DNA of 64,000 bases from Tumebacillus amylolyticus. Lineage in GTDB: Bacteria > Bacillota > Bacilli > Tumebacillales > Tumebacillaceae. The stretch covers positions 186,001-250,000 of the forward strand of contig NZ_JAEQNB010000002.1 in NCBI RefSeq assembly GCF_016722965.1, in the 5' to 3' direction. Numbering within the stretch: position 1 is the stretch's first letter; each line of letters begins with the position of its first letter. Shown here piece by piece: positions 24,001-33,000 of the stretch. Position numbers: made by a program.

Positions 24001-27000
24001 CTCCACCAGTTGTTGGATCCCCTCATGACCCAACTCCCCGGAGCGCACGACCTCCATGTCTTGGTGCAACTTGCCGACGGCCGCTTCATAACCTGCCAAC
24101 GCATCCTCTCGACCGGACAGCAGATACCCGCGCACCGAGTTCTGCATCGCGGCGAGATCGACGACCAACCCCTCGGCCGCCTTGGACTTTGGCTGCAACT
24201 GCTCCACGACCGTTCCTTCCAGATGTTCCAGACTCGTGAAGTGCTGGTAACACCTCCACCCGATCAAGAGCAGCAACACCACGACAATGCCGTTCCAAAT
24301 CACCATGCGCACGCGCAAGGAGTAACGCCGTTTTTTCTTGATGTTCATATCCCCAAGTACCCCCCAAAGTTTCAGGCCCAAAATTTCTAAATCTCCTTCG
24401 ACATGGGTTAACTTGAAACCTTTTTAATTAAATACGATGTTTTGAGCCGTTCGTAAATGAGAAGGTTTAAAAAAAAGAACCATGCGCCCTCCGGCACACG
24501 GTTCTCCTGTTCTAGTATTTGAACTTTCCGACCAACTCTTGCAATTCGTCGGCGAGATGGGCCAGACTGGACGCCGAACTCGCAATTTCTTGCATCGACG
24601 CCAACTGCTCTTGCGCGACGGCGGAGGCATTCTGCGTGCCGGACGCAGCGCCCTCTGCCACTTGCGAAATCATCTCGAATTGCTGCACCACTTGCGAGGT
24701 CCCTGCCGACATCTGTTGCGACGCCGCAGAAACTTCGCGAATCTGGGACGCCACATCGTTGACCGCTTCGAAGATTTGCTCAAACGAGGCCCCCGCCGTG
24801 TTCACCACGTTGATCCCCACCGTGACTTCCTGCGTGCCTTTTTCCATCGAGGTCATCGCAAGTCCCGTCTCCTCTTGAATCGCACGGATCAGTTCCCCGA
24901 TCTCTTGCGCCGACGCGCTGGACTGTTCGGCGAGTTTGCGAACTTCATCGGCGACGACCGCAAAACCGCGTCCTTGCTCCCCGGCCCGTGCCGCTTCAAT
25001 GGCGGCGTTGAGTGCGAGGAGGTTGGTCTGTGCGGAGATCGCGGTGATCACTTCAATAATATTGCCGATCTGCTCCGAACGCTGACCGAGTTTCTGAACG
25101 ACGCCGGAGAGGTCTTCAATCGTCGAATGAATGGAGTTCATCTGGTCAATCGCCGACCGAATCGCCCGATTGCCGACGGTGGCAATTTCCGAAGTCTGGT
25201 TCGCCATCTGCGAAACATGGTTCGCACTCGACGCGATCTGTTGCGCCCCCGACGACATCTGGTCCATCTCTTGCGCGCAATCCCCGACGCTGCGCACTTG
25301 GTGGTCCGCCCCTTCGGCAATTTCGAGAATCGTGCCGGAGATTTGCTCGGTCGCTTGCTTGGTCAAATCTGCAGAAGCGTTCAACTCTTCTGCGGAGGAC
25401 GCCACCTGCTCGGCACTTTCGCTGATCTGCGCGACCAGTCCTCGCAAGTTGTCGACCATGCCGTTAAACGAAGCGGCGAGGTCCCCGATCTCGTCGTTGT
25501 TTTTGATCGAGATGTGCTTCGTGAGGTCCCCGTCACCCGATGCGATCTCTGCCAATTGCGCGTTGACGTCTCGAATCGGGGTGAGAATCGTGCGAATGAG
25601 CACGAAGGTGAGGATCAGCGCAAATGCGATCGCCAGCGGGCCAGCGGTCAAAATCCACATCCTCGCCGACTTTGTCGCGCCTTTGCTGTCGTTCCACGAA
25701 TCTGCCGTCAATTTGTCGATGTCTGCATTGATCTGCGTGTACAGGGTGCGGAAACTGTCCATCGCCGCTTTGCCGTCGTTGATATGCGTGCGTGCGTCCT
25801 CTACTTTGCCCGCTTTGACGAGTTGAATTTGACCCGCAAAGTAGGTTTGCAGCTTCTGAATGTGCGGGAGTGCTTGGCTCTCGACGAGGTCCTTCATGAT
25901 CGGATGGTCACCTTCATGCGTGCGGATCGTCTCCAAGTCCTTCTGCAACTGGTCTTGACCTGCTCTATACGGATCGAGGTATTCGTCCTTGCCGGTGATC
26001 ACGTAGCCTCGAACGCCGGTCTCCATATTCACGAGGTCGGTCAGCAGATTGTGTGCCGCCGTTCCGGTCGGAATGGCGTCCGTCACAATCGTGTTCGATT
26101 GTTGTTCCAACTCCCCGAAAATCTGGTAACAAGTTACACAGATGAAGATGAGGAAAAAGACAACGATGCTGTTCGTTAACCCTGTGCGAAGACGCAACGG
26201 AACCCGAATTCTCTTTTTCATAAGAACAAAACACCCTCCCTCAATTGCTTAATAATACTTTATATACTTTTATCTCCTATCCTTTCCCGTTCGACAATTG
26301 CTTCAAAGAAACCTCCTTTCACCGCTTTATAAAAAAAAGCAGGCAGGGCTTGTGCCCGCCTGCTTTTTCCTACTTCTGCAGAGAAAACGTGTGTCGAATC
26401 GGATAGTCAGGACCCGTAGGTCCCGAGGAGACCGACTCATACAGATGCACGCCGTCCACGACCCAGCTCAATCCCGATGGGGGCGCCCCCACCGACTCCG
26501 GACGAAACTTGAGGTCGGCGCTGTACAACCGCCCGAGCGTAATGTGCGGACGGTACTCGCCGTGGTTGTGCGCTTCTACGTCAAATTCCGCCGAGAGCGC
26601 CGTCACGACGCTGTGTTGGAGACGTTGCAACGCCGACATGTCACGCCCGATGCCGCACCAGACCACTTTGGCACGCGGAAACCAACCGACGTTGCCAAGT
26701 TCCAATTCGAACGCTTGATGCGCCCGAACGGCAGGTTCGACCAAGTCAATCAGCGTCGCCACCTGTACCTCGTCGAGGTTGCCCATGAACTGCACGGTGA
26801 GATGCATCTGTTCCGGCCGGTACCAACGTTTGAGATCGAGATGCGGTTCCAGCCTTTTTTGCAACTCGATCAGTTCCGGGCCGCATACGGACGCCGGAAC
26901 CTCCACCCCGAGAAAGTAACGTCCTGCCATTCACGTCTCCTCCCTTGCAGAGAGTTTCTTACGCGAAAAACTTCTGTGCCCGTTCCAAGTCGTTGTGATC

Positions 27001-30000: not shown

Positions 30001-33000
30001 CGTCGCACCAGTCGAGGACATAGGACACGTAGAGAATCAACGCGCCGAGGATCAGCGCCAGGGTGGAGCCTTGGTAGAAGAACCCGCAGGCCCCGAGGCC
30101 GAGAACGAGCGAGATCAACGTCATGTGATTGGGATGCAAGCCCATGCGGGCCGCGACGTCGGTGACCGGAATCGACAGCCAGGTGTAACACTTTCCTAAG
30201 TAGTAGTTGCTGTACTTCGTGACCGACTCGATCTGTCGGTATCTGTCCTGCAAACTCATGTGAATGCCATCCCCCTGTTATTTCAAAAGTCTTGCAGATT
30301 TTTTACAAGAAAAGACTTGTTTTTAGTAGATTCCACACTCAAGCATACATCCAAACGAGGGCAAAAACAACAACAAAAGCTTGGCATCTCACGACCGAAA
30401 AAACCATTTCTTCCGAGCCGATATCGAAAAAAATAAGCCGACCCCCTCGTCGAGGGATCGACTTATTTATTTCCTACGCAATATATTAAAACTTGCTCCA
30501 GTCCACATGCTTGTTCAAAATCGAAACGAACGTCTCCAGACCTTTGCGGTCTTCGTCGTCGAAGCGTTCGGCAACCGGAGCGTCGATGTCGAGGACCCCG
30601 ATCAGGCGGTCGCCGTCGAGAATCGGGACGACGATTTCCGAACGAGAGGCCGCGTCGCAGGCGATGTGTCCGGGGAATGCATGCACATCCGGCACCACGA
30701 TGGTCTCACGGTTGGTAGCACTCGTGCCGCAGACGCCCTTGCCAAGCGGGATGCGCACACAAGCCGGTTTGCCCATGAACGGGCCGAGGATCAGTTGCTC
30801 CTCGCGATAGAGGTAGAAGCCCGACCAGTTGATAGTCTCCAATTGCAAGTACAAAAGACTCGCTGCGTTCGCCAGATTCGCGATCCAATCCGGCTCGCCT
30901 TCGAGCAGATGATCCAATTGCGAATTCAGTTCTTGATAAAAGGCGACTTTGTCACCTGAAATTTTCGTCGTTTCAAACATGGATGAATCCACTCCTCTCC
31001 ATCATCTCAAACTGTCCCCCATTGTATCACAATTTGCCAATCCGAAAAACTTGATCGCTTTAATGGTGGATTGAATTATGTTATGATTCTTGGAGATTCT
31101 AGAGATATTATCAGCTAAAGGGGTTTCGAACCAATATGGCTTTGCATCGGTATTCTCGTACGGAATTGGTCATCGGGCCGGAGGGTCTGGAGAAGTTGAA
31201 AGGCAGTACCGTCGTCGTGCTCGGCATGGGCGGCGTCGGGTCGTACACCGTCGAAGCACTCGCCCGTTGCGGCGTGGGTCGTCTGGTGCTTGTGGACAAG
31301 GACGACGTGGACATCACCAACATCAACCGCCAGATTCCCGCGCTGACGCACACCGTCGGCTTGGACAAAGTGGACGTCATGATGGAGCGCGTCAAACAGA
31401 TCGACCCGGAGATCGACGTGGTTCCGCTCAAAATGTTCTATCTGGAAGAGTCGAAGGACTCGATTTTTGCATACGAACCGGATTACGTGGTCGATGCGAT
31501 CGACACGATCTCGGCGAAGATCCTCGCTATCGTCGAATGCCACAAACGCGGCATCCCGATCGTCTCTTCGATGGGCGCCGCGAACAAGATCGACCCGACG
31601 CAATTCCGCGTCATGGACATCTCCAAGACCAAGATCGACCCCATCGCCAAGATCATCCGCCGCAAGTTGAAAGACTACGGCATCTACAAGGGCGTCAAAG
31701 TCGTCTGCTCTCTGGAAAACCCGCGCAAACCGCGCGAGGACGTCACCGACCAGATCGTCCCGCAAGCGGTCAAAGAGGGCGAAGCTCCGCGCAAAGCGAA
31801 GAACCCGCCCGCTTCGATCGCCTTCGTGCCGCCGGTCGCCGGCCTCACGCTCTCCTACGTCGTCGTCACAGACCTCGTCGGCATCAAGTAAACGCAACAC
31901 ATAAGCAAAAAAGGAACGCAGCCTCGTGGCAAGCGTTCCTTTTTTACGTTTATCAACAGACTTTTACGTTTATACACAGATTTTATCCACATTATCCACA
32001 GACGTTATCAACAATATCCACAGGTTGATTATTCATATCGTTTGTCATGATACAGCACATACCCGACCGGATGGTGCGTGAAATGCAACACCGGGTCGCC
32101 GGGGTTGTCCGGAGTGGCGTAGGCATGATTTTTGTCGATGTACTCCCCTTGCATCTCAATCGGTTGTCCCTCTTCCAGTCCGACAATCCGCTGCTTGAGC
32201 CCGAGGTTGTCCCCAAAGCGCACCGCGCAGAACGCTTCCGGCAACACGAGGGATTTGTCTGCGCCCTTGATCGTGACCACTTCGATGTGGTCGATCAAGA
32301 AGTGCATGTGTCCGACGTGACCGTCCAACTTGTCCGGTTCAACCCGTTTGACCACCGCTTTGACATGCACGAGCGGTCCCTTCAACGAAAGCGCGTACTT
32401 GTGGTGCGGCAATTCGCAGTTCGCAAGCGTGTGCCCGAAGATCGGGTGGCGAAGCACTTGTTGTTGGTCTTGGGACATGAGAGACACCTCCGATAGGGTT
32501 TGGGTCACTGCATACTTTTATTATAAGTCATAATTTTCAAAAATAATAGATAGTAAAAAAGAAAACCCCGGCTCAATAAGCCCGGGGTGTTTTGATACGC
32601 TTCGAGCGAAACAGGGTCAAACCGGCAAAAGCGAGGAACAACAGCGTCTGCACTTCATGCAGTTCCGTCTGATAGGCCAACGTGGATGTAATATCGGTCA
32701 CCGCCAACGAGAGAAACAAAACGCCTCCCCAGAAGTAGGTGGACCGCATCCCCTCCTCCTGTCGTTTGTAAAAAGCAAACTTGACCAAGACCATCAACGC
32801 TGCAAATACGAACACACCGATCATCAGTCCGTTAAACAGAATCATAGACATGTGGACTCACACCTTTCTCACGAGACTTGTTACTAAGTTAGACGATTGA
32901 ACTTGCAAATGGTTTCATAGATTCTGCGTATTTTTGATAGAAGTTCGAATACTGTGAAAGATTTGTGACCGTCCTGCCACCTTATGCCATTTCAACCCGG

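Follow-up and report, generated by a model that had tools for sequence, protein, structure and literature searches.

The described systems closest to the locus analyzed here belong to the phosphonate (Pnt) pathway, namely, the PntC-AEPT fusion Tde1415 of T. denticola (6PD1/6PD2; accessible parts of PMC6697681) and the CDP-OH phosphonolipid clusters of Burkholderiales (accessible parts of PMC8942020). The locus shares with them the domain order of the fusion, the folds, the logic of CTP activation, and a linked CDP-alcohol transferase, but differs in that the cassette lacks PepM and Ppd, the AEPT arginines are replaced, and the fused cytidylyltransferase is atypical, a second, canonical one being the conserved partner. 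The di-myo-inositol phosphate route (IPCT/DIPPS, 4MND) and the PIP synthases (5D92, 6H5A) have a precursor synthase, a LicC-fold cytidylyltransferase, and a six-helix transferase in common with it; however, the precursor enzyme here is a PLP enzyme, and NF041135 gave 56 to 73 bits against a cut-off of 580. The LicC/Kennedy CDP-choline and CDP-ethanolamine pathways share the logic of CDP-aminoalcohol transfer, whereas the cassette contains no kinase and would, as predicted, synthesize its head group de novo. Cj1437 and Cj1436 of the C. jejuni capsule are class I/II PLP enzymes. According to the accessible text of PMC11800397, Cj1437 converts dihydroxyacetone phosphate (DHAP) to serinol phosphate and Cj1436 converts serine phosphate to ethanolamine phosphate, a precedent for both candidate reactions discussed below, but their products enter amide bonds via Cj1438, unlike those predicted for the cassette. 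The N-terminal aminotransferase of Bradyrhizobium RtxA, a class V enzyme with an AEPT-like fold, also transaminates DHAP to serinol phosphate (PMC3222319, PMC12666128, as far as accessible); it feeds rhizobitoxine synthesis and not CDP activation.

The window, a stretch of 64,000 nucleotides from a Tumebacillus amylolyticus contig, contains three ORFs on the minus strand (26959-30259) that are separated by gaps of only 10 and 18 bases, in agreement with the three linked genes of the preliminary description; all further features lie on the same strand. They encode a CDP-alcohol phosphotransferase of 236 aa (29549..30259; PF01066, E 8e-12), a fusion protein of 612 aa (27700..29538), and a standalone cytidylyltransferase of 240 aa (NT2, 26959..27681), the best PDB match of which is LicC 1JYK. 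Pfam and PDB matches divide the fusion into an atypical cytidylyltransferase domain (NTP_transferase) of LicC/PntC fold, as judged by motifs and tree (NT1, 28843..29538), and a class V PLP domain (Aminotran_5; 27745..28812). The start of NT2 was placed at 27681, an ATG preceded by an AGGAGTG ribosome site, rather than at the GTG at 27693. A gene for a ThpR-like 2H phosphoesterase (26370..26930; TIGR02258 above cut-off) starts 28 bases downstream of NT2 and probably shares the operon transcript in T. amylolyticus; it adjoins the cassette at three of the loci compared, lies away from it at two others, and is outside the conserved cassette. Terminator-like hairpins, both consensus matches only, were noted 3' of the 2H gene (26337..26361) and at the end of the upstream GAF gene (30431..30468), parting the latter from the operon, and the counts of promoter and terminator-like sites in the region were at chance level. 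Contigs from one soil metatranscriptome match the operon, mostly at 95 to 100%, and span both gene junctions (27361-27739, 29431-29612); such contigs do not show transcription.

The operon had been described as core to the Tumebacillaceae. Indeed, the fusion was present in all eight other genomes of the family and in two more of the order Tumebacillales, with the three genes together in each of these 10 loci. Of 401 Bacilli genomes, these 11 from the Tumebacillales were the only ones to exceed 500 bits; 9 of the 12 next-best matches were read, and all 9 are Arg-type AEPTs. It is not a speciality of the family, however, as Rokubacteria/Methylomirabilia, Acidobacteria, and a plasmid of Bacillus thuringiensis carry the same fusion. 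Moreover, the cassette core, consisting of a class V PLP enzyme, a CDP-alcohol phosphotransferase, and a cytidylyltransferase, was encoded in one orientation within 4.5 kb at 46 of 60 loci of the Gln type (defined below) from many phyla and one archaeon; in the locus counts given here (60 Gln-type and 18 Arg-type loci), related loci do not count as independent, and some loci cover only short stretches. The search covered 37 of 64 database parts, and the best 80 of 559 loci were kept; both partners were also found at 5/5 further Rhizobiales loci. Aquificae and methanogens, in which aminopentanetetrol lipids occur, were absent from these best 80 loci, and a phage collection gave only weak matches to the cassette (≤37% identity). 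No transporter, phosphatase, or sugar-modifying gene belongs to the conserved cassette among the neighbours scanned, and no Pfam family matched, at 1e-4, a gene of 186 aa that lies within four of the cassettes. The earlier framing as a PntC-type fusion is not supported either: the unfused three-gene cassette is the conserved unit, and the fused cytidylyltransferase is the least conserved part.

The likeness of the fusion to the Treponema enzyme was nevertheless confirmed: its top PDB match is 6PD1 (residues 2-590, 246 bits), with 27 to 28% identity over about 615 columns in Foldseek. The AlphaFold model of the fusion (pLDDT 92.5) deviates from 6PD2 by 21 Å over the whole chain, a value that reflects domain placement within the model, whereas the PLP domain fits the AEPT domain of the T. 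denticola structure with an rmsd of 1.7 to 1.8 Å. NT1 keeps Lys23, DGD, Lys153, Glu191, and EID, the metal residues included, but its glycine-rich loop departs from the canonical PntC/LicC form. It forms a separate clade, is the fastest-evolving domain, and has decayed in the B. thuringiensis orthologue; it is likely an accessory domain, either a sensor or a weak duplicate. NT2 has the canonical GxGSR...PK motif, corresponding to the GxG(T/S)R-x-PK of PntC/LicC enzymes, together with their metal-binding Asp/Glu and Lys153. Together with the cytidylyltransferases of unfused cassettes it falls into a single clade, comprising 62 sequences (FastTree support 0.99), a topology that identifies it as their orthologue, i.e., the conserved copy. 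Its pocket is an Asp/Glu mix, with Asp at the position of PntC Glu104 and Glu196 kept (Glu104/Glu196 make up the AEP-specific pocket of PntC, as against Asp105/Asp192 in LicC); this mix also occurs in cytidylyltransferases of phosphonate clusters and does not discriminate substrates.

The PLP domain has the class V features, namely, PF00266, Lys430, Asp404, and the fold detected by Foldseek, as well as His269-Arg270. Both substrate arginines of AEPT (RFT and FRI motifs), a role in which Arg340 serves in the Salmonella enzyme, are replaced, by Pro477 and Gln574 (codon 27817-27819). Gln574 and Lys430 were conserved in 120/120 homologues and His269-Arg270 in 119, with one gap, whereas those solved AEPT and AGT relatives whose alignments were displayed keep Arg at the position of Gln574. 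The domain scored below the cut-offs of TIGR03301 (311 bits; cut-off, 360.8) and TIGR02326 (212 bits; cut-off, 400.8), while an Arg-type control passed. Although the catalytic Lys is kept, both AEPT substrate arginines are lost, and the PLP domain is, judged by its sequence, not an AEP transaminase. Cassette enzymes form one clade in FastTree (0.91), whereas IQ-TREE nests AEPT inside them (AU p for one clade, 0.42), the root consisting of only two SerC-type rows. The preliminary description had stated that the genome has no PEP mutase and that the operon likely does not serve a phosphonate pathway; TIGR02320 has no match in the T. amylolyticus genome, and TIGR03297 (Ppd) matched only far below its cut-off, on other contigs. 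PepM/Ppd-like genes were found at none of the 60 Gln-type loci, as opposed to 17 of the 18 Arg-type loci, and, out of 50 carrier genomes, no more than 4 had a PepM above the cut-off. As had also been noted, TIGR02320 detected PepM, at or just under cut-off and unlinked, in four of the order's 10 other carriers and in none of the other 6. The Arg-to-Gln change and the 0/60 loci thus support the view that the operon is not a phosphonate pathway.

The CDP-alcohol phosphotransferase has an intact D-x2-DG-x2-AR...G-x3-D-x3-D motif and a six-helix PIPS/DIPPS-like fold in its model (pLDDT 72.5), the nearest folds being 5D92 (VIA Z 18.5, rmsd 3.2, 201 aligned) and 4MND (VIA Z 18.3, rmsd 3.7, 198 aligned). 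Residues D83, D86, G87, Q88, R91, G100, D104, D108, Y150, and E192 are invariant across 35 cassette enzymes. An acidic x-D-E motif takes the position of the basic residues with which PIPS binds its acceptor. In most cassette enzymes, helix 4-5 retains basic residues (R-x-Y-x-K) that could bind a phosphorylated acceptor; they are missing from the Tumebacillus enzyme.

We propose that the PLP domain would transaminate DHAP to serinol phosphate and that NT2 would couple the latter to CTP to form CDP-serinol, with NT1 in a likely accessory role; the membrane-bound CDP-alcohol phosphotransferase would then transfer the head group, most likely to diacylglycerol, giving phosphatidylserinol. What the data show are the three domains with their motifs, a linkage that recurs in many phyla, loci free of PepM/Ppd, and the replacement of Arg by Gln; all substrates and products are inferred. 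The path from DHAP to CDP-serinol appears reasonably probable, and the whole chain ending on diacylglycerol is a tentative reading. Serinol phosphate from DHAP, a guess in the preliminary description, is now the best guess, with residue-level and genome-level support, and a lipid head group is one of the possible products. DHAP differs from 3-phosphohydroxypyruvate, the substrate of phosphoserine transaminase, solely by CH2OH in place of COOH, so that an Arg-to-Gln swap with His-Arg kept is the change expected; the SerC-type enzyme of T. amylolyticus has His-Arg plus arginine, and the Gln-type clade His-Arg plus Gln. The DHAP route is also favored because Patescibacteria carriers have triose-phosphate isomerase (TIM) without SerC and because the PLP domains of FeeM/PF13444 N-acyl synthase fusions share the His-Arg, NGEFG, and Gln signature (Gln in 111/120, 9 unmatched by the pattern). 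The N-acyl serinol gene of Cohen et al., 2017, reportedly includes an aminotransferase domain (hm-NAS of Gemella, Desulfitobacterium, and Bacillus). A single N-acyl synthase gene yields N-acyl serinol in E. coli (accessible parts of PMC13012048 and PMC9605164). This link would be indirect, by way of domain architecture: the amine is N-acylated in these synthases rather than CDP-activated, and the best trees place the N-acyl synthase domains in a clade of their own, although a topology that unites them with the cassette enzymes was not rejected (AU p 0.49). Against the proposal, an RtxA-like protein (Aminotran_5 plus Cys_Met_Meta_PP, beside a desaturase) nests among AEPTs and keeps both arginines, so that Gln is not required for DHAP use; its domain shares 27% identity with the PLP domain, which has neither the AEPT-type arginines nor the O-acetylhomoserine sulfhydrylase fusion of the RtxA type.

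In T. amylolyticus, psd was found and genes resembling pssA and pgsA were recognized from their sequences, as had been reported; given that psd is present in 31/50 carriers and 17/17 genomes of the order, the cassette does not replace phosphatidylethanolamine (PE) synthesis. A ceramide or sphingolipid acceptor is unlikely in T. amylolyticus, in which no serine palmitoyltransferase was found and the only alpha-oxoamine synthase is BioF of the bio operon. The Patescibacteria carriers have TIM (5/5) and lack TIGR01364 SerC (7/7), and a single-contig genome of 0.9 Mb had no SerA match at 1e-30; phosphoserine is therefore probably unavailable to them, whereas DHAP is available. Their other class V matches (five carriers) comprise cysteine desulfurases and a sugar aminotransferase, one short fragment apart. 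These five had no match to PlsY, a PlsC-type acyltransferase, or CdsA, which speaks against a lipid acceptor, as the carriers would need scavenged diacylglycerol; GpsA gave weak partial matches in two. Also unfavorable is Fodinisporobacter ferrooxydans, which carries the fusion: the accessible part of PMC11123200 reports, after ninhydrin-stained TLC, DPG, PG, PE, a glycolipid, two phospholipids, and three lipids, with no extra aminophospholipid, and PE, PG, and PME for T. permanentifrigoris.

These observations would suit a soluble acceptor, with CDP-serinol joined to a second serinol phosphate or to glycerol 3-phosphate to give a di-serinol-phosphate-type solute, in parallel to the inositol synthase/IPCT/DIPPS route. 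The PIPS and DIPPS folds, the basic residues of most cassette enzymes, the cassette enzyme as the sole PF01066 protein in 3/5 Patescibacteria carriers, and the movement of the cassette among bacteria and to or from an archaeon, whose lipids differ, are all in line with it. We regard it as unlikely, however: the Tumebacillus enzyme lacks these residues, no phosphatase travels with the cassette among the neighbours scanned, and an osmolyte fits poorly with the NaCl tolerance of only 0.5% given for F. ferrooxydans and T. permanentifrigoris in the accessible text of PMC11123200. Decidedly unlikely is a PLP domain acting as a phosphoserine decarboxylase, with phosphoethanolamine passing via CDP-ethanolamine to PE in a bacterial Kennedy-type route or to another phosphoethanolamine diester. 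The serC-serA pair of T. amylolyticus, the reaction of Cj1436 and the fact that PE would leave no new TLC spot argue for it (PMC11800397 and PMC11123200, accessible parts), but psd co-occurs in 31/50 carriers and SerC and, in the 0.9-Mb genome, SerA are missing from Patescibacteria carriers. The loss of the Arg that binds the carboxylate also counts against the DHAP proposal, because it fits poorly with a donor that is an amino acid. A decarboxylase would explain it better, Dunathan geometry predicting such a loss with the His-Arg phosphate site kept; yet the N-acyl synthase-fused Gln-type domains are tied, indirectly, to serinol rather than ethanolamine.

AEPT relatives use an aldehyde, TIM supplies both trioses, and the pockets would admit more than one chain length, so that glyceraldehyde 3-phosphate could give 3-amino-1,2-propanediol phosphate, or a longer ketose or aldose phosphate another amino-polyol phosphate. 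We consider this very unlikely, as serinol is the only product tied, indirectly, to Gln-type domains and no sugar-modifying gene accompanies the cassette. Extremely improbable is a phosphonolipid made without PepM from imported aminoethylphosphonate: although, among solved structures, AEPT and PntC-AEPT come nearest and unlinked PepM exists in four carriers of the order, the lost arginines, the missed TIGR03301 cut-off, the PepM/Ppd-free loci, and the lack of a conserved transporter oppose it, and with an imported substrate the aminotransferase, although it is the best-conserved domain, would have no reaction to catalyze.

The literature searched, in which subscription journals were largely missing, contained no description that we found of the cassette, CDP-serinol, or natural phosphatidylserinol. 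If the serinol phosphate proposal is true, a de novo CDP-serinol pathway, together with natural phosphatidylserinol or di-serinol phosphate, would be added to microbial envelope chemistry, and it would be easy to test in the cultured hosts Tumebacillus, Roseovarius, Sulfitobacter, and Parasphingorhabdus. Many homologues are annotated as '2-aminoethylphosphonate-pyruvate transaminase'. In that case, these labels could inflate counts of phosphonate metabolism, and a one-residue rule, Gln versus Arg, would separate cassette genes from true phosphonate genes. A broader view, which we consider doubtful, is that of a portable module making serinol phosphate from glycolysis alone, with lipid-auxotrophic Patescibacteria either placing a head group of their own on diacylglycerol scavenged from the host or building di-serinol phosphate, and with Gln-type DHAP transaminases as the possible stock of the AEP transaminases. 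If the proposal holds, Patescibacteria may act on membranes or cytoplasm despite lacking the lipid-synthesis genes searched.

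The CDP-alcohol phosphotransferase (29549-30259) and the cytidylyltransferase-aminotransferase fusion (27700-29538), each identified as an ORF with a domain match, and a second, standalone cytidylyltransferase (NT2; 26959-27681), identified by ORF and start-codon reading, form a minus-strand operon with intergenic gaps of 10 and 18 bases. Treponema denticola PntC-AEPT aligned with the fusion over its whole length. In the genome, which is 100% complete, no match to PEP mutase was obtained and nothing scored over the cut-off for Ppd. The fusion was present in all 8 other Tumebacillaceae genomes and in 2 further Tumebacillales genomes, with the three genes together at all 10 loci, and none of the 401 Bacilli genomes searched, beyond these carriers of the order, scored in its range. 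The preliminary description was thus borne out as to the linked genes, the likeness to PntC-AEPT, the missing PEP mutase, the conservation in the family and the absence from other sampled Bacilli. Two tandem methyl-accepting chemotaxis-type genes (22633-26221) lie directly downstream of the operon. A secreted-looking protein of 903 aa with repeated beta-sandwich units is encoded at 34382-37093, a place occupied by other large genes in relatives.

The PLP domain of the fusion has the fold of 2-aminoethylphosphonate (AEP) transaminases (AEPTs; rmsd of 1.7-1.8 A) and retains Asp404 and Lys430. Its profile scores were under the AEPT cut-offs, and the AEPT arginines are replaced, that of the RFT motif by Pro477 and that of the FRI motif (Salmonella Arg340, a substrate-binding residue) by Gln574. 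All 120 homologues share this Gln, and 119 of them retain His269-Arg270. A GTDB contig scan covering 37 of 64 parts was analyzed for the best 80 of 559 relatives, in which position 574 was Gln in 60, Arg in 18 and cut off in 2. PepM or Ppd-like genes occurred at 0 of these 60 Gln-type loci versus 17 of the 18 Arg-type loci, both counts being inflated by related genomes, and residue 574 thus follows gene context. Judged by its sequence, the PLP domain is not an AEP transaminase, in line with the earlier proposal that the operon is not a phosphonate pathway. On every feature tested the cassette falls outside that pathway, whereas it works in like manner to the Pnt, DIP and Kennedy routes. Genome searches covered 50 of the 60 Gln-type loci (all but L006, L009, L019, L036, L046, L054, L063, L064, L080 and L081); in these carriers, mostly MAGs of unstated completeness, PepM was over cut-off in 4, SerA in 18 and SerC in 14 (by TIGR01364, which misses the type present in Tumebacillus), and psd was found in 31. 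At loci L016, L023, L028, L032, L035, L057, L059 and L066 (Omnitrophota and planctomycete MAGs), an Arg-type AEPT, a split Ppd, a PepM-cytidylyltransferase and a CDP-alcohol transferase are interleaved with squalene-hopene cyclase/hopanoid genes, and a phosphonate-modified hopanoid or lipid is a possible product.

The cassette is wider than Tumebacillaceae, contrary to its initial portrayal as a speciality of the family. Among the best 80 of 559 relatives, 46 of the 60 Gln-type genes had both partners, cytidylyltransferase and CDP-alcohol transferase, at most 4.5 kb away in the same orientation, and several of the remaining 14 loci stop at a contig edge. The Gln-type carriers in this set include Pseudomonadota (23), Patescibacteria (seven), Actinomycetota, Methylomirabilota/Rokubacteria, Bacteroidota, Chlamydiota, Nitrospinota, Zixibacteria, Aerophobetes and one archaeon. 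A protein search returned fusions from Rokubacteria and Terriglobia (42-46% identity) along with many unfused homologues. Strong matches were also obtained in 6 of 301 genomes of a Rhizobiales sample, with the cassette at all 5 new loci, and a further cassette lies on a Sulfitobacter plasmid.

Several variants were observed. The cassettes of a Hyphomicrobiales MAG (L074 / L120) and of a Saccharibacteria genome (L022) group as sisters, reflecting transfer or bin contamination. An MMPL transporter directly precedes the Gln-type enzyme at L006:53-3354, L009:82-3393 and L036:4651-8281, where the two partners are not nearby. At L017:695-3969 and L045:5426-9298 the Gln-type enzyme accompanies two CDP-alcohol transferases, no cytidylyltransferase was found, and CDP-diacylglycerol could be used directly. 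Further Gln-type domains are fused to a MurE-like ligase, an unassigned N-terminal domain or a PF27533 domain (P0121, P0122, P0123 and P0124), and four cassettes contain a 186-aa gene without Pfam match between transferase and cytidylyltransferase (L025:11953-12513, L037:12030-12590, L041:11869-12432 and L043:12007-12576).

NT2 carries the canonical GxGSR...PK motif, which was defined for PntC and LicC (PMC6697681, in excerpt), and forms one clade with the single cytidylyltransferase of unfused cassettes (62 sequences; support of 0.99). The fused copy, NT1, has its own clade (32 sequences; 0.997) and an irregular loop, is the least conserved domain at all 10 loci of the order (at L128, 62% versus 84%, 79% and 69%) and is decayed in Bacillus thuringiensis. 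NT2 is therefore likely to be the working cytidylyltransferase, and a sensing or secondary role of NT1 is possible, since its metal residues are kept in Tumebacillales. On the B. thuringiensis plasmid NZ_CP019232.1 (L083:7523-23558), the fusion (PLP domain, 66%) and a standalone cytidylyltransferase lie ahead of two NRPS genes, in a cluster with a PPTase, a Nudix hydrolase, A-T-C-A-T and C-A-T-TE modules, an MFS transporter and a 5'-nucleotidase, in which a CDP-alcohol transferase is absent. In FR-900098 (FrbH/FrbI), CMP serves as a removable handle; by analogy, the plasmid product may be a peptide ending in an amino-alcohol phosphate, with CMP in the same role.

In the pathway that we propose, the PLP domain would transaminate DHAP to serinol phosphate, NT2 would activate the latter with CTP to CDP-serinol, and the membrane enzyme would transfer the head group, diacylglycerol being the simplest acceptor for a CDP-aminoalcohol. 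We take His269-Arg270 to be a phosphate site, a role carried over from phosphoserine transaminase; the SerC-type enzyme of Tumebacillus, encoded upstream of serA, has both His-Arg and the arginine. A phosphate site kept while the carboxylate-binding Arg became Gln fits DHAP transamination and phosphoserine decarboxylation alike, and Campylobacter jejuni offers precedents for both (Cj1437 and Cj1436, respectively; PMC11800397, in excerpt). Two results lead us to favour transamination. All five Patescibacteria with the full cassette have TIM, but no SerC of either type was found in them (other class V matches were cysteine desulfurases or a sugar aminotransferase, with one short fragment unread), and G415, a Patescibacteria carrier with a single 0.9 Mb contig, gave no match to SerA, which argues against a decarboxylase. 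Likewise, a search for longer forms revealed a large family of Gln-type class V domains fused to FeeM/PF13444 N-acyl synthases, with His-Arg, NGEFG and Gln as in the cassette enzymes. N-acyl serinol synthase genes, as Cohen et al. reportedly described in 2017, carry an aminotransferase domain. According to the consulted portions of two articles (PMC13012048 and PMC9605164), N-acyl serinol was made in Escherichia coli from single Firmicutes N-acyl synthase genes. Fusions of an N-acyl synthase with a Gln-type class V domain match in 48 of 401 Bacilli genomes (L085-L114; P0132-P0251), two of these matches being partial, and also in numerous Verrucomicrobia. Some have an extra PlsY-like domain, and they are candidate N-acyl serinol makers well outside gut bacteria. 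Against DHAP, the missing carboxylate-binding Arg of a Gln-type enzyme is difficult to reconcile with an amino-acid donor. In addition, an RtxA-like protein, whose gene ends after 603 codons and adjoins a desaturase (L142:271-4870), keeps both arginines and its aminotransferase domain groups with AEPTs, so that the class V enzyme known to transaminate DHAP relies on another solution. The initial guess of serinol phosphate from DHAP thus gains from the Patescibacteria gene content and the N-acyl synthase signature and loses by the RtxA-like arginines and the amino-donor problem.

The CDP-alcohol phosphotransferase of Tumebacillus has a complete catalytic motif, and its predicted fold (pLDDT of 72.5) is nearer to PIP synthase (Z of 18.5) and DIPPS (18.3) than to choline phosphotransferase (12.0). 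A ceramide acceptor is unlikely, because the sole alpha-oxoamine synthase of the genome is BioF. A soluble diester instead of a lipid is a close rival, since the five full-cassette Patescibacteria gave no matches to PlsY, PlsC-type enzymes or CdsA, the cassette enzyme is the sole PF01066 protein in three of them, and for Fodinisporobacter ferrooxydans, a carrier of the fusion (P0023), the excerpt of its description lists no additional phospholipid that stains with ninhydrin (PMC11123200). The missing CdsA makes home-made CDP-diacylglycerol an unlikely donor in these Patescibacteria, which supports the CDP-aminoalcohol direction.

A literature search, with subscription journals and bioRxiv supplements outside its scope, returned no paper describing this cassette, CDP-serinol or phosphatidylserinol from nature. 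Taken together, the cassette is real, widespread and mis-annotated, and its chemistry, all of which we infer, is open to direct testing.
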